From a virus (lineage: Duplodnaviria; Heunggongvirae; Uroviricota; Caudoviricetes): a stretch of 16,195 nucleotides of DNA. The stretch lies in IMG/VR virus record IMGVR_UViG_2537561991_000020; one strand, written 5' to 3'. Shown here piece after piece: positions 1,088 through 15,865 of this stretch. The notes below the pieces were generated by a model. That model saw nothing but the letters and a program-made list of their open reading frames with translations, did no database searches and was not told the DNA's origin. Within the stretch, counting starts at the first letter, position 1, and each line of letters starts with the position of its first letter. The translations under genes and the position numbers were made by a program.

Positions 1088-2107
1088 CTACTTGCTAACC
1101 ACGAGCGGCAAATCCAGTGTTGGTGTGATTTTTGTTTTACGATCGTAAATCAACACCTGATTTTCTGTTTTATGCCCGCTGAAAATTTGTTTGTCGCGAC
1201 TGCTGCCTTCGTAATCTGAGATCCCCTTGGCTTTTATGTCGTGAAAATTACACCCGAACGGAACGCCAACTTTTTGCTCGGCTGCGCGTTTAGCCTGATT
1301 CCACCAGTTATTCAGCGTTTTAGCTATGACTTTCCCGCCTTTGGTTGTATTGATCACATATTCGCATGTACAGGAAGATACATTTCGGGCTAACTGGATC
1401 GCTGTACGTAATCGCGGTGACCATTCCTTGATTTGTTTGGTGCCGGTTTTGTTTTGCTCAATGTAGATCCCTTTATCCATAATATCCTGCCATTTCAACT
1501 CAAGCACATCACCGAGTCTTGCCGCACAGAGATAGGAAATCTCCATTGCAATGCGTAACTGTGGAATTGCTTCCGCATATATCGCCGCATACTGTTCATC
1601 GGTGATGTAAACAGTGCGGGCTTTAAGAGAGAATTTTCTGACTCCTTTGCATGGGTTATTCTTCACATACCCACGCTCATATCCCCACCCGTATACTCGA
1701 CTCAGGCTTGCCAGTTCATGATTTGCCTGGGTCTTGCTCTCAAGCCCTCGTTTATCCATGAAAATTCTTACCTGCTCAGTTTTGACATTATCAGCAAGCA
1801 CTTTTCCGAATACCATCAGCAACGCCTTCTGATGTTGTCGATAATCTTTTTGGGTTCGGGGGGCCAGTTCTGTAAATGCAGGGGAGTCCATAAACATGTG
1901 CCATAATTTAGCTACGGTCATTATGTTGTGGAGTTTTGCTTTTTCCAGTTCATAATTTTGCCAGACTTTAGCTACGCTGGTTTTCCGCACTCTTCCTAGC
2001 CCTATACTTCTTGTACTTCCTTCGGGTTTCCACACGTAACTGTAACCATTCGATCTAACCCGCGGTGGCAGTACATTATCTTTTTTATTTTTTCTTGGTC
2101 TTCCCAT
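1088..2107 (-). CDS. int: Lambda-family tyrosine integrase
   Basis: 339-aa ORF. The N-terminus MGRPRKNKKDNVLPPRVRSNGYSYVWKPEG resembles the lambda Int arm-binding N-terminus; the C-terminus FHDIKAKG...SGHKTENQVLIYDRK fits the His/Tyr catalytic region of tyrosine recombinases. It is adjacent to the tRNA fragment. Confidence 0.85.
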   Translation of the reverse strand: MGRPRKNKKDNVLPPRVRSNGYSYVWKPEGSTRSIGLGRVRKTSVAKVWQNYELEKAKLHNIMTVAKLWHMFMDSPAFTELAPRTQKDYRQHQKALLMVFGKVLADNVKTEQVRIFMDKRGLESKTQANHELASLSRVYGWGYERGYVKNNPCKGVRKFSLKARTVYITDEQYAAIYAEAIPQLRIAMEISYLCAARLGDVLELKWQDIMDKGIYIEQNKTGTKQIKEWSPRLRTAIQLARNVSSCTCEYVINTTKGGKVIAKTLNNWWNQAKRAAEQKVGVPFGCNFHDIKAKGISDYEGSSRDKQIFSGHKTENQVLIYDRKTKITPTLDLPLVVSK

Positions 2108-2394: not shown

Positions 2395-4866
2395 TTAAAA
2401 ATCAGCCTGACTCGGGAGCAGTTTTTGCCAGATGGCTGAAACGTATTTCGCCTGGTAACGTGCATCGTTCAGAGCGTTATGGCGTTCACCTTCGAATGGA
2501 ATAGTCGTTCTTGCGTCGAAATCCATCACCAGTCCCAGAGCAACCATCGTTCTTACATCGCGATCATTGGTGTAACGCCACGGGCAGGGGATCCCCTGCC
2601 GTTCATATGAACGGCGTAAAATCACGTTGTCGAAAGTTGCACCGTTACCCCAGACCTGAACAAAAAATTCACCGGAGTTTTCGTCGATAAATTCCCGCAA
2701 TTGTAACAGTGCATCATCTAACGGGATTTCATCGGTCATAATGGCAGATTGCGCTTCGCGTGATTGCTTAAGCCACCATTTAATGGTGTCCCGATCAATG
2801 ACTCCGCCAGCAGTTTCCAGATCAATAGTCTTACTAAATTCCGGTCCCATATCTCCGGTTTGCGGATCGAAAAATATTGCACCTATTGAGATAATCGGGG
2901 CATCAGGATTTTTTCCCATGGTTTCAAGGTCGATCATTAGATGGTCACACGTCCTGCTGGTGGATGTGATAACGTGATGACCGTTCACCGTAATTAAGGG
3001 ATCTGCCGTCTCGCCAGTTTCACTATCGCTGGCGTGATCCTGAGCGCTACCAGCATTCTCCTTGTGTGGATGTTCAGCGCCTTCCATTTCCTCCGGATCA
3101 TTTTCCTGAACTTCAACCTGATTCTCTTCATCGAATGTTTCCTGGTATGTTGCGTCACCCATCACCGCGCCACAATCATGGCAGTTGCCACCACCGCTTT
3201 GACCGCAGGCGGTGCAGACTTTTTCCGGTTCCTGTTGCGCTACTGGCTCAGGTTGTTTCGTTTCTGGCTCGTTTTGTTGCGTATTTGGGCTGTTTTGTTC
3301 CGCTTTCTGGTCGTTCTGTTCCGATTCTTGCTGGTTCTGGTTTACAGAATCGCGGGTTTCCATCCCCTTTACCCATTTCGGATCATTCGGGTCGCTAATC
3401 CCTGCAACAAATTCTCCGCGAGAGGCAGCAAGCAACTTATCGGCGTCAGGCTGGCTGATATTGGCTGCCTGCATAATTTTGTTTACTTCGTCAGCGGTAA
3501 CTTTTACCGGCTCTGGTTGTGCGGTCGTGTCAGATGCACCAGTATTTTGTTGTGAACCTGAGTATGTACTGTTTTTGCGGGCGAAATATTCTTCTTTCGT
3601 GATTTCAGTAGCCCCGGCAGCCAGTGCCTTATCCAGACCAGAAAGTTTGTTTGCGCGACCGTATTTTTCGCCATCCTTGTCGGTGAAGAGGAAGTAGAAC
3701 GGCCCCTCACGCTCTACAGATGGTTCGACTTCCACTTTGCATTCGGTTTTTTCGTTGTCCGGAATTGCCGTTTCCACTGCATCAGTTTCTGGTACTGACG
3801 ACGAGAGAGTATCAGTTGCGCTCTGATTTGTTCCTTCATCTTCAAACACGCCCTTTGTAGTCAGGTATTCAGTAATGTATTTGTTCAGTGCCACAGGGTC
3901 TTTGTGAATGTCGATCGGACGTTCACGGACAAGGCCAAAAATAGTCTGGCGGTCGTAGCGAAGGGCATCAGGCTGTTTGCGCATTGATGTCGAGATACGC
4001 TTCCAGTCTTCGCGGTCGTTGTCGATAACTTCATTTTTTGCCCAGCGATGGATGCTGCCGTCAATGTTTCCGGCATCCACATCACCAGGCCAGAGAGCGT
4101 AGGCCAGTTCGTCATCCAGTGTTTTCCATGTCTGCTTGTATTCGCGATGAATGGCAGCAATGACCAGGCTGATTTTTCCTGTTGAATTTTCAGTGTGCTG
4201 TTGATTGACTCTGGCGCGGGCGAGATCAACAACAGACGTGTATTTTCCGGTTTCCTTGCGTTCACCTTCGCGACGTTTTTTCCAGATGCGCATCTCTGCC
4301 TGAATTTCGGGCCATTTGGCACCAGGCTTACATTTATGCTTAACCCACCCGATGGCATGCAGCTTAAGCTCCGGATACATGGCGTTAACTTCTGGCATTT
4401 TCATCAACGCTTCAACGATATGTCCGTCGAATGTTGCCATGTCTTCCTGCAACAATTCCTGTGCGCTAATAACCATATCAACGGTGATGTTTTCACATGT
4501 GTCGAACTTAACCATGACAGCGTTCTGTACTTCAGGGGCCAGCTTGTCAAAAGTGACGTTCATCGGATCGGATTCAGTCTCAACCGGGACAAAGGAAGCA
4601 GACTCCTCATCCCAGCGGTTTTCCTGCATATATTCAGCATCCCAGGAATCGAGGGCAGGGCGGGGTATGCCGGGTTTATCCTCACAGACAATAAATTTAT
4701 AAGCGCAGTCCTGAGCTGCAGGGAATTGCTCCAGAAATTGCCAATGAAATTTTGCGCGTGCGCGACGCTCATCACCAGCTTCAATGGCAGTGGCCACCGC
4801 AACAGCGCTATCTTCTTTTATGGCCTGTTCATCAGGAATAGCAGCGCAAATAAAGACTTTACTCAT
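2395..4866 (-). CDS. Phage exonuclease-family protein (exodeoxyribonuclease VIII-like) with a C-terminal DnaQ-like DEDDh 3'-5' exonuclease domain
   Basis: 823-aa ORF with a GAGGT ribosome-binding site. The C-terminal region has the motifs MIDLETMG (Exo I, D/E) and [13 protein letters not shown] (Exo III, H...D). A central Q/E/N-rich low-complexity segment and a CxxC-x7-CxxC zinc ribbon ([16 protein letters not shown]) are present. It occupies the exo position between xis and the dicB operon. Confidence 0.75.
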
Positions 4867-5504: not shown

Positions 5505-5562
5505 AAAAACGGCGGCAGAGCAGTCACGGAGTAAAACTGATACCGCCAAACGTCACCAGAAA
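5505..5562 (-). ncRNA. dicF: DicF small regulatory RNA (ftsZ-targeting antisense sRNA)
   Basis: The minus strand reads tttctggtgacgtttggcggtatcagttttactccgtgactgctctgccgcc followed by a U-run, essentially the DicF sequence as I recall it. It lies between ydfC and dicB as in the K-12 dicB operon. Confidence 0.75.
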
Positions 5563-6603: not shown

Positions 6604-7011
6604 TTATTTTATTGATTTGTTTTTACGTGCTTTAAGCATTTCTTCGAAGAGTTTATTGAAATTCTCTACTCTTGCGCGCATTTCAGACAGTAAGGCTTCC
6701 TGCTCGGAGGAGGGAAGAGCATCGAATAATTCGATCAATTCTTTGTGGCTGGGAGTTAACTCGGTTTCCACATGAAGTTCTTGTGCTGGCACTGGTGCCT
6801 TGTCTTCGTCACCAAACATTAGCCATGTAGGCGAGCACTTCAGCGCATCAGCTAAAGCAAATAACCGCTTCCCGACCGGTTGGGTTTCGTCTCTTTCCCA
6901 TTGTGAAATTGTGACGTGAGCTACCCCAGCGAGGCGTGCAGCTTCTCGTTGTGTTAGGCGTAATTCTTTTCGTCGTGCCAGAACTCGCTGGCCTAGGGTT
7001 CTTGTATCCAT
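6604..7011 (-). CDS. dicA: DicA-like HTH repressor (cI-like, XRE family)
   Basis: 135-aa ORF. HTH region LTQREAARLAGVAHVTISQWERDETQP and C-terminus ...EMRARVENFNKLFEEMLKARKNK closely resemble K-12 DicA as I recall it. Divergent from dicC. Confidence 0.85.
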   Translation of the reverse strand: MDTRTLGQRVLARRKELRLTQREAARLAGVAHVTISQWERDETQPVGKRLFALADALKCSPTWLMFGDEDKAPVPAQELHVETELTPSHKELIELFDALPSSEQEALLSEMRARVENFNKLFEEMLKARKNKSIK

Positions 7012-7078: not shown

Positions 7079-7091
7079 AGAGGGGGCTTTG

Positions 7092-7319
7092 ATGCTTAAA
7101 GTTGACGCAATTACTTTTTTTGGCAGCAAAACAAAACTTGCCAATGCCGCAGGAGTGAAACTGGCAAGTGTTGCTGCATGGGGGGAACTGGTTCCTGAAG
7201 GTCGCGCGATGCGCCTGCAAGAGGCATCCGGCGGGGAACTTCAGTACGACCCCAAAGTTTATGACGAATATCGTAAGGCAAAGCGGGCGGGGCGGTTGAA
7301 CAATGAAAATCACCCCTGA
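7092..7319 (+). CDS. dicC: DicC-like Cro-type regulator (75 aa)
   Basis: MLKVDAITFFGSKTKLANAAGVKLASVAAWGELVPEGRAMRLQEASGGELQYDPKVYDEYRKAKRAGRLNNENHP matches K-12 DicC as I recall it. ATG at 7092 is preferred over the TTG at 7089 because the AGGGGG ribosome-binding site (7081-7086) is better spaced. Confidence 0.8.
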   Translation: MLKVDAITFFGSKTKLANAAGVKLASVAAWGELVPEGRAMRLQEASGGELQYDPKVYDEYRKAKRAGRLNNENHP

Positions 7320-7824
7320 ACAGGTTTGTGAGGCTCTGGATGCCTGGGTATGCCGACCAGGAATGACACAGGAGCAGGCGACGATATTAATCACGGAAGC
7401 ATTCTGGGCTCTGAAAGAACGCCCGAACATCGATGTTCAACGCGTCACGTTTAATGATGGCGAGGTTGATCAACGGGCGTTGGGCGTTAACCGGGTGAAG
7501 ATATTCGAACGCTGGAAAGCTATCGACACCAGGGATAAGCGGGAAAAATTCACGGCGCTGATTCCGGCAATTATGGAGGCTATCCGGATCAGCGATTTCA
7601 GGTTGTATTGTGAAATTACTGACGGAAAAAGCATTACGTACATGATCGCCGGGTTAAACAAAGAATATGGTGATGTGGTGGAGTCCGGGCTGCTTTTTGC
7701 GGATCCATCTGTTGTGGAACGTGAGACTGACGAGCTTATAGAAAAAGCTATTGCTTTCAAGCATGCGTATCGTCAGCAATACCAACAAAAAGCTGGATGG
7801 AATTATGAGCCTTCTTTTTGCTGA
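7303..7824 (+). CDS. YdaT-like protein in the cII position
   Basis: 173-aa ORF directly downstream of the cro-like gene with a 17-nt overlap. Weak motif resemblance to Rac YdaT (MKI...; REKFTALIPAIMEAI versus REKIQKLIPAILAIL). Confidence 0.5.
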   Translation: MKITPEQVCEALDAWVCRPGMTQEQATILITEAFWALKERPNIDVQRVTFNDGEVDQRALGVNRVKIFERWKAIDTRDKREKFTALIPAIMEAIRISDFRLYCEITDGKSITYMIAGLNKEYGDVVESGLLFADPSVVERETDELIEKAIAFKHAYRQQYQQKAGWNYEPSFC

Positions 7825-8770
7825 ACGCCCACTGGTTATAAACACACAGCTTGCGATGAAGATTGGCTTAAATGAAGCCATTGTGTTGCAGCAGTTGCAT
7901 TACTGGTTGAGAGATACCAGTTCCGGTATGGAATGTGACGGGGTTCGCTGGATTTATAACACAACAGAACAATGGCTGGAACAGTTCCCGTTCTGGTCAG
8001 AGTCAACGTTAAAACGCGCATTTGCAAGTCTGAAAACGCTGGGGCTTTTGCGTTGCGAAAAGCTCAACAAATCAAAGCGTGATATGACTAATTTTTACAC
8101 GATTAATTACGAGAGTGAGCTTTTAGATGGTGGCAAAGTGAGCGAATCCATCAGGTCAAAATGCGCCGCTCCATCGGGTCAAAATGACACGATGGAAGAG
8201 GTCAAAATGGCACGCTCCATTGGTTCAAAACGACCCAATGTCATCGGGTCAAAATGGCCTGATGATCTTACAGAGAATACAACAGAGATTACTACAGAGA
8301 ATAAAAACACTTCTCGTCCGGAAGCTTCGCAACCGGACCCGCAGACGGCTGAACAGGATTTTTTAACCCGACACCCTGACGCGGTTGTGTTCAGTGCGAA
8401 AAAACGCCAGTGGGGAAGTCAGGAAGATTTGGCGTGCGCACAGTGGATCTGGGGACGAATCGTGAGTCTTTACGAGCAGGCTGCCAGCGATGATGGCGAG
8501 ATCACGCGACCGAAAGAACCAAACTGGACCGCATGGGCCAATGACGTGCGCACAATGCGGATGCTGGATGGCAGAAGCCACAGACAAATTTGCGAAATGT
8601 TTGGTCGGGTACAGCGAGATCCATTCTGGGTAAAAAACATCATGAGCCCGTCAAAGCTTCGCGAAAAATGGGACGACCTGGTCATCCGCCTGGGGCGTTC
8701 ACCTGTACAGTGTTGTGTGAATCATATTTCTGAACCGGATACCGAAATTCCGCCTGGTTTCAGGGGATAA
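7805..8770 (+). CDS. Putative phage replication initiator (O-like), with internal iterons
   Basis: Long ORF after the cro/cII-like genes. The N-terminal region (ERPLVINTQLAMKIGLNEAIVLQQLHYWL) looks like a helix-turn-helix replisome-organizer domain. The gene contains direct repeats (iterons) as lambda O contains ori. Start is uncertain: ATG 7805 preferred, 7751 and 7763 possible. Confidence 0.6.
   Translation: MSLLFAERPLVINTQLAMKIGLNEAIVLQQLHYWLRDTSSGMECDGVRWIYNTTEQWLEQFPFWSESTLKRAFASLKTLGLLRCEKLNKSKRDMTNFYTINYESELLDGGKVSESIRSKCAAPSGQNDTMEEVKMARSIGSKRPNVIGSKWPDDLTENTTEITTENKNTSRPEASQPDPQTAEQDFLTRHPDAVVFSAKKRQWGSQEDLACAQWIWGRIVSLYEQAASDDGEITRPKEPNWTAWANDVRTMRMLDGRSHRQICEMFGRVQRDPFWVKNIMSPSKLREKWDDLVIRLGRSPVQCCVNHISEPDTEIPPGFRG
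8154..8256. repeat. Iteron array (candidate origin of replication): five ggtcaaaatg-type repeats at about 23-bp spacing
   Basis: ggtcaaaatg at 8154-8163, 8177-8186, 8200-8209 and 8247-8256, plus variant ggttcaaaacg at 8222-8232. Spacings are 23, 23, 22 and 25 bp. An AT-rich tract with three acagaga repeats follows (about 8257-8310). Confidence 0.55.
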
Positions 8771-8810: not shown

Positions 8811-9218
8811 ATGGCAAAAGTATTTACACAGGAAGAGCGGGAAAAAATTAAAGGACAGGTGGTGGAACTCGTGCGCCAGAGCGGTCGTGAGACGTTACGG
8901 CAACTGGAAGCTAAAACAGGTGCGACAAGATATCTGATGAGCGTTCTTGCCAGAGAGCTGGTTGCCAGTGGTGATGTATATCACTCTGGCTATGGGGTGT
9001 TCCCGTCAGAACGGGCTCGTAAGGACTGGCAAAACGCCCGCAAAAAACTCTCGAGGGCAAAGGTGAAGAAACCTGTTGTGGTTGATCCGGGCCTTATCTG
9101 GACATTACCCGACGGAGAAATACGCCGCTACGACAGGCGTATGAACATAATCTGTCGCGAGTGCCGGAAGAGCGAAGTTATGCAGCGTGTATTGGCGTTC
9201 TATCAGGGATATGCCTAG
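8811..9218 (+). CDS. Hypothetical protein (135 aa), possible HTH-containing
   Basis: ORF with a good ribosome-binding site (caggagga, then ATG at 8811). No confident homology recalled. Confidence 0.55.
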   Translation: MAKVFTQEEREKIKGQVVELVRQSGRETLRQLEAKTGATRYLMSVLARELVASGDVYHSGYGVFPSERARKDWQNARKKLSRAKVKKPVVVDPGLIWTLPDGEIRRYDRRMNIICRECRKSEVMQRVLAFYQGYA

Positions 9219-9586: not shown

Positions 9587-10618
9587 ATGTCTATTAATCC
9601 TAAACTTAAGCGTATCGCGCGACGCTATCCAGCGTTATTCCAATATGAGTCCCCCTATATGGCAAGAAAATTAATAATATTCGGCAACGGTCTCGGTATG
9701 GCTTTAGATCCTGCTCACTTCTCCTTAGACAGAGCGTTGGAAGAAATTTGGCATCGCCCCAATTTTTTAAAAGATATCCACAAGCAACTTATCGAGCGTT
9801 GTCTTCAGCGGCAAGGTCCACCAGAAGGAGAACATGAGTTGGATACCCTTCACCAGGCTGTCACATATTGTAAAGCTCTTGCTCAAATTGGAGAGGGGAA
9901 CGTGCATTGGCTTACTGAAGATGGACTAAACTTCCCCAAAATTACCGCCACTTATATTCACAAAGTTGCAACCAGGTTGCATAATTACGATAAAGGTTTG
10001 CCACAAAGATTCGAAAATGCGCTTGTGGAGTTTGTAAAGAACACACACTCACATATCGCGACATTAAACTATGACAAATTATTATACAATTCATTCATAG
10101 ATAATGATATATTCAACGGGTATGATGGGGTTTTAGTTGATGGGATGCTAAGCCACGGATTTTCCTCTGCAGCGCTCGAACGGAAATACAATCGTAGGTT
10201 TGGTTATTATTTGCACTTGCATGGTTCACCACTATTTATTAATCAGCATGAAAATGTTTTAAAACTTTCACGCTCACAACTTACTCTTGACATAGATGAA
10301 CCTAGTGAGCATATAGTGTTAACTCATATAAAAAGAAAACCGTCAGTTATAGCAGCATCTAATGTTCTTTCTACGTACTGGGATTATTTGCAGTTTGCAT
10401 TATTTGAATCAGAAGAAATAATATTGTTTGGTTACTCTGGTCTCGATATTCACCTTAACCTGCTTATTCGACCTTACCTAACCTCTAAGCCTTTAAGAGT
10501 AATTGAGTGGAGCGGTGCTGGTGAACAAAACGCTCGTGAGATATATTGGAAAAACCAGTTGAGACGGGAAGTTACTGTAATTAGGTTGGATAACATCACT
10601 GATTTTATTGATTGGTAG
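9587..10618 (+). CDS. Standalone SIR2-like (SIR2_2-type) putative NAD+-hydrolase; candidate anti-phage defence cargo gene
   Basis: 343-aa ORF in a visibly AT-rich block. Four ordered motifs parallel Thoeris ThsA-type SIR2 domains: IIFGNGLGMALD (Gly-rich loop), TLNYDKLL (conserved Asn), YYLHLHGSP (catalytic His), IILFGYSGLD. Start codon is uncertain because the ribosome-binding site at 9587 is weak. Confidence 0.6.
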   Translation: MSINPKLKRIARRYPALFQYESPYMARKLIIFGNGLGMALDPAHFSLDRALEEIWHRPNFLKDIHKQLIERCLQRQGPPEGEHELDTLHQAVTYCKALAQIGEGNVHWLTEDGLNFPKITATYIHKVATRLHNYDKGLPQRFENALVEFVKNTHSHIATLNYDKLLYNSFIDNDIFNGYDGVLVDGMLSHGFSSAALERKYNRRFGYYLHLHGSPLFINQHENVLKLSRSQLTLDIDEPSEHIVLTHIKRKPSVIAASNVLSTYWDYLQFALFESEEIILFGYSGLDIHLNLLIRPYLTSKPLRVIEWSGAGEQNAREIYWKNQLRREVTVIRLDNITDFIDW

Positions 10619-10778: not shown

Positions 10779-10989
10779 TTTTATATTGGCGAGGTGACGG
10801 GAGTTAAGTAGAATTGCTGCGGGTGCTTGAGGCTGTCTGCCTCGGGCATGCCACCGTAAGGCAGACAGAGAAAAGCCCCAGTTAACATTACGCGTCCTGC
10901 AAGACGCTTAACATTAATCTGAGGCCCAATCTATGCTTCACAAACGTAGGTTAGCCTCTTACGCGCCGAAAGGCAAGGAGAAGCAGGCT

Positions 10990-11145
10990 ATGAAGCAGCA
11001 AAAGGCGATGTTAATCGCCCTGATCGTCATCTGTTTAACCGTCATAGTGACGGCACTGGTAACGAGGAAAGACCTCTGCGAGGTACGAATCCGAACCGGC
11101 CAGACGGAGGTCGCTGTCTTCACAGCTTACGAACCTGAGGAGTAA
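10990..11145 (+). CDS. hokD: Hok-family type I toxin HokD/RelF (51 aa)
   Basis: MKQQKAMLIALIVICLTVIVTALVTRKDLCEVRIRTGQTEVAVFTAYEPEE matches K-12 HokD as I recall it. Internal ATG at 10990; stem-loops typical of hok mRNA leaders lie upstream (10833-10868, 10882-10916). Confidence 0.85.
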   Translation: MKQQKAMLIALIVICLTVIVTALVTRKDLCEVRIRTGQTEVAVFTAYEPEE

Positions 11146-15615: not shown

Positions 15616-15691
15616 GGCCCTTTAGCTCAGTGGTGAGAGCGAGCGACTCATAATCGCCAGGTCGCTGGTTCAAATCCAGCAAGGGCCACCA
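15616..15691 (+). tRNA. tRNA with CAU anticodon (tRNA-Ile2, ileZ-like, or tRNA-Met)
   Basis: Cloverleaf folded by hand: acceptor ggccctt/aagggcc, anticodon loop ctCATaa, T-loop ggttcaaatcc, discriminator A and encoded CCA. Confidence 0.85.
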
Positions 15692-15698
15692 TCACATA

Positions 15699-15775
15699 CC
15701 GCTATTAGCTCATCAGGAAAGAGCGCCAGCCTTCGAAGCTGGCTGCGCGGGGTTCAAGTCCCCGATGGCGGTCCA
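15699..15775 (+). tRNA. tRNA-Arg (anticodon UCG), argN-like
   Basis: Acceptor ccgctat/atggcgg (one G-U pair), anticodon stem ccagc/gctgg with loop cTTCGaa (U33, anticodon UCG), T-arm cgggg-ttcaagt-ccccg, encoded CCA. Confidence 0.75.
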
Positions 15776-15788
15776 TTATCTGCATCAT

Positions 15789-15865
15789 GCGTTGTTAGCT
15801 CAGCCGGACAGAGCAATTGCCTTCTAAGCAATCGGTCACTGGTTCGAATCCAGTACAACGCGCCA
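15789..15865 (+). tRNA. tRNA-Arg (anticodon UCU), argO-like
   Basis: Acceptor gcgttgt/acaacgc, anticodon loop cTTCTaa (anticodon UCU), T-loop ggttcgaatcc, encoded CCA. Confidence 0.85.

Follow-up and report, generated by a model that had tools for sequence, protein, structure and literature searches.

In phage lambda the replication origin has been described in the middle of gene O, the product of which also binds AT-rich single-stranded DNA (ssDNA) (PMC7466680). A deletion of ORF20 of Staphylococcus phage 80alpha could not be complemented in trans, suggesting that the origin of 80alpha lies within this gene (PMC5499656). An origin embedded in the initiator gene is a known kind, represented by lambda, by ORF20 of 80alpha and by G38P of Bacillus phage SPP1. 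The stretch analysed here (the window; 16,195 nt, IMG/VR record IMGVR_UViG_2537561991_000020) comes from a lambdoid prophage and covers its early region. Within it an open reading frame (ORF) at 7805-8770 on the plus strand, directly after the cro-like and cII-like genes, encodes upon translation an initiator protein of 321 amino acids (aa), and this gene contains a series of iterons, A/T-rich 12-mers and an inverted repeat. We interpret these repeats as the vegetative replication origin of the prophage, built like ori-lambda and located in the linker-coding part of the initiator gene, and assign this interpretation a probability of roughly 0.8.

The series starts with five iterons, R1-R5 (8149-8264), 23-nt units with the core GGTCAAAATG that were found with a repeat search and with Tandem Repeats Finder (TRF). 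The repeat search placed them at 8149-8171, 8172-8194, 8195-8217, 8218-8240 and 8242-8264 (start-to-start distances of 23, 23, 23 and 24 nt), and TRF reported a period of 23 with 5.3 copies at 8134-8256. Exact copies of the 10-mer GGTCAAAATG are found at 8154, 8177, 8200 and 8247, these four being the only ones on either strand of the window, where by our own estimate about 0.03 occurrences of one given 10-mer are expected by chance; the fifth core is the variant GTTCAAAACG at 8223. A search allowing two mismatches (17 matches, 20 expected) was uninformative, so that only exact copies of the core count. The original prediction, made from the sequence, had placed five repeats of about 10 bp inside the ORF, and these are real and lie where it put them. 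The spacing of two helical turns that it proposed is only approximate, 23 nt corresponding to some 2.2 turns.

The array continues in register upstream of R1 with a sixth unit, R0 (8126-8148). In the window R0 is degenerate (GGTGGCAAAGTGAG), and it is a good copy (GAGGTCAAAGTGAC) in the relatives from Klebsiella, Citrobacter, Enterobacter and phage mEp460_4F5. R2, R4 and R5 are near-palindromes of the CATCGGGTCA-AAA-TGACCCGATG type, the arms of R2 being 12 nt long and 92% complementary. The initiator gene of the window contains, in sum, five clear units and a degenerate one (8126-8264), and a second iteron-like array was not found in the window by TRF. A scan of viral contigs yielded only sequences with 97-100% identity, and was used for copy-number counts only. 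Among 85 near-identical prophage loci that were scanned, 56 have five pattern-matching iteron cores together with three 12-mers, and a few have four 12-mers. A variant initiator of 290 aa (P0018-P0023, from several E. coli records) has an in-frame deletion of exactly 93 nt (31 codons), equivalent to positions 8149-8241 of the window, by which iterons R1-R4 are removed and R1 is joined to R5, a product that recombination between iterons would be expected to give.

The last iteron is immediately followed by an A/T-rich, strand-asymmetric and easily melted block, the proposed DNA-unwinding element (DUE). It holds three 12-mers on the plus strand, TACAGAGAATAC (8269-8280), AACAGAGATTAC (8281-8292) and TACAGAGAATAA (8293-8304), in which the top strand is purine-rich. 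The GC content of the block (8265-8308) is 0.30, against 0.48 for the window, and its top strand consists of 52% A and 66% purines. No 40-mer of the gene is less stable than the 12-mer block, for which the nearest-neighbour free energy (dG) is -44.3 compared to a window mean of -54.6 (standard deviation 4.2). The AT-rich segment with three repeats that had been predicted to follow the iterons was recovered in this form. Over 48 copies from 16 lineages the consensus 12-mer WACAGAGANTAC reads W-A-C-A-G-A-G-A-N-T-A-C. A search against Rfam identified no RNA family within 8100-8350.

The repeats might serve only to encode a flexible protein linker rich in Ser, Lys, Thr and Glu, the DNA having no function of its own. 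In support of this, residues 86-177, which include all repeat-encoded residues, are predicted to be disordered in an AlphaFold2 (AF2) model (predicted local distance difference test, pLDDT, 23-43), and the 12-mers are in frame in the window (TENT/TEIT/TENK). The iterons, however, do not encode a repetitive peptide. Because 23 is not a multiple of three, the one core is read in all three reading frames and is translated as RSKC, GQND, EVKM, GSKR and GSKW. Furthermore, third codon positions are conserved far beyond the level of the folded N-terminal domain: among ten Enterobacterial homologues they are invariant in 8 of 105 codons of that domain (mean majority fraction 0.69), against 26 of 48 in the iteron array (8121-8264, R0 included; 0.87) and 12 of 14 in the 12-mers (0.99). 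In three loci (L107, L109 and L122; Campylobacterales, Bacillus and Sericytochromatia) the first 12-mer starts 11 nt before the second and is read in a different frame, as (D/T)RD(Y/F) instead of TETT/PETS, and still the DNA motif is intact. A role as linker only is hardly credible in the light of these data. The combination of a predicted disordered linker with frozen synonymous sites argues for selection on the DNA, and the comparison of homologous genes points to DNA-level rather than peptide-level selection on the repeats. The earlier statements that the repeats encode a repetitive linker, and that DNA and protein constraints coincide, do not hold for the iterons: the peptide is non-repetitive and the constraint is on the DNA.

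A comparison of related phages shows that the parts of the initiator gene are exchanged as modules. Klebsiella phage Kp4886-3 has the same N-terminal domain (62% identity), and the GGTCAAA(A/T)TG iterons (23-nt period) and the 12-mers are likewise shared, but its C-terminal domain is a different one (Phg_2220_C, PF09524). Conversely, Shigella phage VIT_AJPSC and Klebsiella phage Kp4876-4 share the lambda-O-like C-terminal domain and the inverted repeat with the window, but carry a different N-terminal domain (HTH_36, PF13730), in combination with TCAAAATCTGAC iterons in a 15-nt period and without CAGAGA 12-mers. In these domain swaps the iterons and 12-mers travel with the N-terminal domain, as expected if that domain reads them.

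To obtain a wider view of the cassette, one genome per species was scanned with an alignment of the N-terminal domain, which resulted in 37 loci. In the loci that have the cassette, the N-terminal domain is immediately followed by 3-8 palindromic units (xxxCA-AAW-TGxxx) with a period of 21-23 nt, and then by 2-4 12-mers. Such loci were found in Citrobacter, Raoultella, Enterobacter, Izhakiella, Trabulsiella, Pantoea, Providencia, Pseudomonas and Gilliamella, in a metagenome-assembled genome (MAG) of the Campylobacterales, in Bacillus, Geobacillus, the Selenomonadaceae and the Deferribacterales, in a Sericytochromatia MAG, and in Staphylococcus phage StauST398-3 and Bacillus phage BMBtp2. Pairs of CAGAGA at a distance of 11-13 nt were present at most 260 nt after the N-terminal domain in 23 of 33 loci, and in three more loci farther downstream, past longer linkers or a second N-terminal domain. 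Within the 260 nt these pairs reach a density of 5.1 per kb; the remainder of these loci has 0.029 per kb. The 12-mer follows N-domain homologues in at least 16 lineages.

Binding of a host factor, for instance as a primase site, was considered for the 12-mers and set aside: three types of initiator found in the same hosts (those of lambda, of the HTH_36 phages and of the window) differ in their A/T-rich block, and the N-domain family keeps the motif across phyla. As the iteron arms vary by lineage and the 12-mer hardly does, and as initiators of another type in the same hosts have other A/T-rich blocks, the 12-mer appears to be matched to the initiator family and not to a factor of the host. 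The block is situated exactly where N- and C-terminal modules are swapped, and its DNA is near-identical between otherwise diverged relatives, which would also fit a recombination joint at the module boundary, with the 12-mers and their flanks serving domain shuffling instead of unwinding. This we regard as very improbable. Joints need identity only among phages that meet, whereas the motif is kept from Escherichia to Bacillus, Selenomonas and the Deferribacterales, with flanks that share no DNA identity. Moreover, it is repeated two to four times at a period of 11-12 nt, and HTH_36-type initiators, which recombine with the same C-terminal module, do not have it.

The iteron arms take the forms GGTCA, GGGCA, GTGCA, GGACA and GTTCA, depending on the lineage. 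Base X of the half-site NNXCA is tracked by residue 67 of the initiator (W64-S65-x-X67-T68), at the start of the predicted recognition helix: Ser67 occurs with T in 14 of 14 lineages, Asp67 with G in five of five, and Lys67 or Arg67 mostly with A. A switch is seen within Pantoea, where helices that are otherwise near-identical contain Glu-Lys in P. allii and Pantoea sp., together with mainly GGACA arms, and Pro-Asp or Ser-Asp in P. dispersa and P. brenneri, together with G(G/T)GCA. A locus of the Deferribacterales (L119), in which tandem N-terminal domains have Lys and Asp at residue 67, has asymmetric iterons with GTGCA on the left and GGTCA on the right. This co-variation is the most direct computational indication that the N-terminal domain reads the iterons.

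To the right of the A/T-rich block, 12 bases past the 12-mers, lies an inverted repeat, GTCCGGAAGC-TTC-GCAACCGGAC (8316-8338), which has six perfect pairs and two further pairs and is imperfect in the window. In 14 distinct versions from the Enterobacterales (10 pairs, 3-nt loop) 87% of the cells are paired, against at most 36% when the partners are slid. Changes on both sides at three of the pairs, found in Providencia (GGCTCA/TGAGCC) and Pantoea allii, are compensatory. The inverted repeat occurs with both types of N-terminal domain and with both types of C-terminal domain. An inverted repeat of the form GTC.GG...CC.GAC after the A/T-rich block is seen in the present family and in the HTH_36-type sister modules, and lambda has GTCAGAG...CTCTGAC (1167-1194 of locus L126). 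A similar inverted repeat, GTCGGGCAACCCGAC, is visible at the annotated origin of 80alpha (around 3383-3400 of locus L130).

With the anatomy complete, it can be asked whether the repeats are mainly control sites, involved in autoregulation, titration, handcuffing or the exclusion of related phages, while the true origin is elsewhere. Plasmid iterons have dual roles in control and at the origin, fragments of the lambda origin are said to inhibit related phages, and the evidence for initiator binding applies to control sites just as well; in addition, the element belongs to a prophage, and natural variants without R1-R4 exist. Such a primary role nevertheless seems unlikely to us. Without exception the sites come together with easily melted repeats at a fixed distance and, in the Enterobacterales, with an inverted repeat, which is the anatomy of an origin and not of an operator, and the window offers no other iteron-like array. 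Control and origin roles are, furthermore, not mutually exclusive.

The initiator itself matches the PHROG 391 profile 'replication initiation O-like' (E 7.5e-95, residues 17-321 on profile positions 11-298 of 298). Neither the protein nor either of its domains could be assigned to a Pfam or NCBIfam family (even at E<=1), and close homologues are named 'hypothetical protein' by NCBI. The N-terminal domain (aa 1-105; 7805-8120, plus strand) is a predicted winged-helix DNA-binding domain, with the predicted recognition helix at aa 66-78 and, within it, Ser67 as the presumed specificity residue. In the AF2 model, which was made from a shallow alignment, its secondary structure is H-H-E-E-H-H-E-E (pLDDT about 60-75). 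A Foldseek search of this domain against the PDB returned as top matches the Rep-DNA complex entries 4pql_B and 5kbj_H, which are weak (E 0.05-0.09, TM-score 0.5), followed by winged helix-turn-helix regulators. As no Foldseek match fell below E 0.05 and the model is moderately confident, the winged-helix fold is supported only loosely. The family of the N-terminal domain is represented by 10,317 clusters at 50% identity (one representative each, E<=1e-3). Many of the matches contain two matched stretches, and tandem N-terminal domains are found in L119, L120 and L124 (Deferribacterales and Proteobacteria MAGs).

A lambda O type or an 80alpha ORF20 type was considered for this domain and rejected, since hhalign shows no relationship to either: there was no match to PF04492 (Phage_rep_O; Pfam, E<=1), and the hhalign probability was 0.1% against residues 1-140 of lambda O and 0.4% against ORF20 of 80alpha. 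The C-terminal domain (aa ~183-295; 8351-8689, plus strand), on the other hand, is homologous to the C-terminal, P-binding domain of lambda O, with 39% identity in a tblastn search against phages (E 1e-17) and 34% over 148 aa in a pairwise BLASTP comparison (E 3e-27). The AF2 model shows it as helical (pLDDT 60-79). The pairwise alignment extends into the linker, and thereby aligns the 12-mer block with the A-rich block of lambda. The 'O-like' label of the original prediction is in consequence appropriate for the C-terminal half of the protein, whereas the N-terminal domain is of a different family.

The protein ends in a tail, CVNHISEPDTEIPPGFRG (8714-8767, plus strand), that resembles the last 18 residues of E. 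coli DnaT (DVNTVSEPDSQIPPGFRG). In a phmmer search against the PDB the tail matched residues 162-179 of the entries 2ru8, 6aep and 9zbt_D, at the extreme C-terminus of both proteins, and beyond this match to DnaT the initiator matched nothing; owing to its shortness, the match has an E-value of only 0.08-0.2. The tail ..EPDTEIPPGFRG was also observed in L002, L004, L005, L008, L093-L096, L098, L100-L102 and L105. A scan of 14 window ORFs revealed no homologue of P, DnaC or DnaB, and the gene directly downstream is not a P gene. None of the 14 loci where the initiator ends in ..P.GFR(G/S/T) has a loader or helicase gene next. Where the tail is lacking, the next gene is Phage_lambda_P (E 1e-56) in L097, which has a lambda-O-like end, an IstB/DnaC-like ATPase in L104, L108 and L109, and a DnaB-like helicase in L107, L118, L121 and L127. 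Neither pattern fits Providencia, L007, L111/L112, L117, L122 and L128. According to the structural literature on DnaT, deletion of residues 154-179 approximately halves the affinity for ssDNA; the structural papers do not state what residues 162-179 bind. We hypothesise that through the tail the initiator is connected to DnaB-DnaC or to the host primosome.

We infer the following for the system of the window, which applies to its function as an origin as well as to binding by the initiator, the opening of the strands and the part played by the tail. The 23-bp iterons, five or six in number and dyad-symmetric (half-site NNTCA, A-tract centre), would be occupied by dimers of the N-terminal domain to form an O-some-like complex, the strain of which would open the adjacent block of three 12-mers (WACAGAGANTAC). 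Since the 12-mers are tied to the N-domain family and not to the host, the initiator may contact them in a sequence-specific manner, probably as single strands. The inverted repeat downstream would be the third element of the origin, as in lambda, and the lambda-O-like C-terminal domain together with the DnaT-like tail could bring in the helicase machinery of the host directly. Rightward transcription from the promoter on the cro side would cross the origin, again as in lambda.

Several observations weigh against this interpretation. In the window R0 is a degenerate unit, the right arms of R1 and R3 are poor, and the inverted repeat has A-A mismatches at two of its ten pairs. Outside the 12-mer block, about 1% of the window's 40-mers are melted even more readily than the block itself. 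The CAGAGA and T10 of the 12-mer consensus were partly imposed by the search pattern, although A11 and C12 were not. The co-variation at residue 67 derives from few independent switches, without phylogenetic correction, and is mixed for Lys/Arg67. The AF2 model of the initiator has a mean pLDDT of 53.8, a low to moderate confidence, and its fold matches are weak. Finally, the literature searches yielded no experiments on origin firing or binding for this initiator family.

The initiator gene is flanked by the further genes of the lambdoid early region. Upstream are an integrase gene (1088-2107, minus strand), a gene for a RecE-like exonuclease (2395-4866, minus strand), a helix-turn-helix repressor gene (6604-7011, minus strand), the cro-like gene (7089-7319) and the cII-like/YdaT gene (7303-7824). 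The next gene after the initiator is DUF977/Ren-like (8811-9218), and beyond it follow, in order, genes for a SIR2-like protein, an HNH endonuclease, RusA, Q and a DNA methyltransferase. A possible defence moron is the SIR2-like gene (9587-10618; Pfam SIR2_2, E 1e-5; weak PADLOC matches to Aga_SIR2 and PDC-S21), which is placed between the ren-like gene and the nin-like region, where the AT content of the window is highest. Rfam searches identified a sok antitoxin RNA at 10821-10995 (plus strand, 116 bits), beside a hok/mok-type ORF annotated as MokW in related phages, and the small RNA DicF at 5510-5561 (minus strand, 72.5 bits). Many Stx-type and lambdoid prophages have tRNA genes after Q and the methyltransferase, and the window likewise has three there (15616-15865; Met-CAT, Arg-TCG and Arg-TCT). 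Within the exonuclease gene TRF reported 21-nt tandem repeats at 3233-3339 (2-4 copies, 74-77% matches), the period of which is a multiple of three and which are therefore probably a peptide repeat.

The nearest isolated phages are mEp460_ev081, HannyBb and PhiR42_1 (91-92% nucleotide identity) and mEp460_4F5 (80%). The initiator gene is the sole replication gene in the plaque-forming isolates mEp460, HannyBb and PhiR42_1. Two circular records of 43.7 kb deposited as E. coli plasmids (NZ_CP081704.1 and NZ_CP081794.1) match the initiator; NZ_CP081704 is an mEp460_4F5-like phage genome in which the initiator is the only recognisable replication gene, and it is without an assigned replicon type. 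Other 'plasmids' of about 40 kb, from Klebsiella, Enterobacter, Bacillus and Staphylococcus, also contain homologues of the N-terminal domain. Of 5426 complete E. coli genomes, 1887 carry the origin segment (coverage of at least 80%), in up to four copies per genome. The annotation there reads 'hypothetical protein' or 'phage replication protein O', and RefSeq marks no origin.

A wider proposal, which we put forward tentatively and at somewhat less than even odds, is that the window is a member of a very large, unannotated initiator-origin cassette extending over at least six phyla. The initiator would read the iterons (Ser67 with T, Asp67 with G, Lys/Arg67 with A) and a near-universal 12-mer as a sequence-specific unwinding or loading element, and in the Enterobacterales the same initiators would do without a phage loader, a tail motif shared with DnaT plugging the origin into the host primosome. 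A description of the cassette, or of its N-domain family, conserved 12-mer, specificity code or loader-less arrangement with a DnaT-like tail, was absent from the literature searched (including the string ACAGAGAATAC), in which subscription journals are thinly covered, so that an earlier description is possible. If the proposal is correct, palindromic iterons followed by WACAGAGANTAC repeats would be an annotatable origin signature for thousands of temperate phages of Gram-negative and Gram-positive hosts, and the exchange of Ser, Asp and Lys at one helix position against one base would constitute a natural series of specificity switches between initiator and iteron, directly testable. An unwinding-element motif that follows the initiator family and not the host would bear on how iteron-type initiators open DNA. 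The tail would give a lead on the recruitment of DnaB by 'initiator-only' phages and on the role of the conserved last 18 residues of DnaT.

One of the closest known systems is ori-lambda (also that of the Stx phages). In both cases the origin is positioned mid-gene at the junction of the N- and C-terminal domains, and its dyad-symmetric iterons, four to six of them, have an A-tract centre (ATCCCTCAAAACGAGGGA in lambda, CATCGGGTCAAAATGACCCGATG in the window) and a spacing of 20-24 nt. Read with the same tools, lambda displays four palindromic iterons (spacing 20, 24 and 23), an A-rich block and an inverted repeat (GTCAGAGAATTC/GAATCCTCTGAC) in the same order of elements, and in both the inverted repeat starts with GTC.G and ends with C.GAC, the outer ends being alike. 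The gene order (cro, cII-like, initiator, ren-like) and the homologous C-terminal domains are also shared. That the locus mirrors ori-lambda, as originally predicted, is supported by the dyad repeats, A-rich melted block and inverted repeat in the lambda order, by the position at the domain junction and the synonymous conservation, and by a repeat type that follows the N-terminal domain through swaps and an iteron base that co-varies with a residue of the recognition helix. The differences from lambda are an N-terminal domain without detectable relationship, a melted block made up of three well-defined 12-mers, the lack of a P gene, and a DnaT-like tail in place of the C-terminus proper to lambda O. 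By eye, degenerate relatives of the 12-mer (ACAAAAGAC, ACAAAAGAA, GAAAAGATTAT and TCAGAGAATTC, at 12-15 nt spacing) can be seen in the A-rich block of lambda (1126-1178 of L126), which hints that the element is older than the swap of the N-terminal domain.

In ORF20 of Staphylococcus phage 80alpha and G38P/oriL of Bacillus phage SPP1, too, the initiator gene contains iterons and, after them, a repeated stretch that is AT-rich. The GenBank record of 80alpha contains a rep_origin feature, and a GTCGGG..CCCGAC inverted repeat is found after the AT-rich stretch. In contrast to the window, the sequences of the iterons and the AT-rich stretch are different, a gene for a DnaC-type loader follows, and there is no detectable homology of the N-terminal domain. 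The HTH_36-type sisters VIT_AJPSC and Kp4876-4 have the DnaT-like tail and the position of the origin in common with the window initiator. The RepA_N-type plasmid initiators (4pql, 5kbj) are the best, but weak, structural match of the predicted N-terminal domain, which has no Pfam match; they belong to plasmids, not phages. Their iterons, too, reportedly lie inside the rep gene. By analogy only, the 12-mers can be compared with the DUE 13-mers of iteron plasmids (TrfA, RepE) and with the DnaA-trios, which are short repeats beside the double-stranded sites of the initiator, with strand asymmetry and a conservation tied to the initiator. Rep proteins on the DUE 13-mers and DnaA on the DnaA-trios are reported to make sequence-specific contacts with a single strand. 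In the present case the motif is WACAGAGANTAC and recurs, unlike theirs, every 12 nt (every 11 nt for some copies). The window differs from the known cases of an origin embedded in an initiator gene in its distinct and very large family of N-terminal domains, for which there is no model, in a 12-mer conserved across phyla, in an apparent specificity code of one residue and one base, and, in the Enterobacterales, in a loader-less arrangement with a DnaT-like tail.

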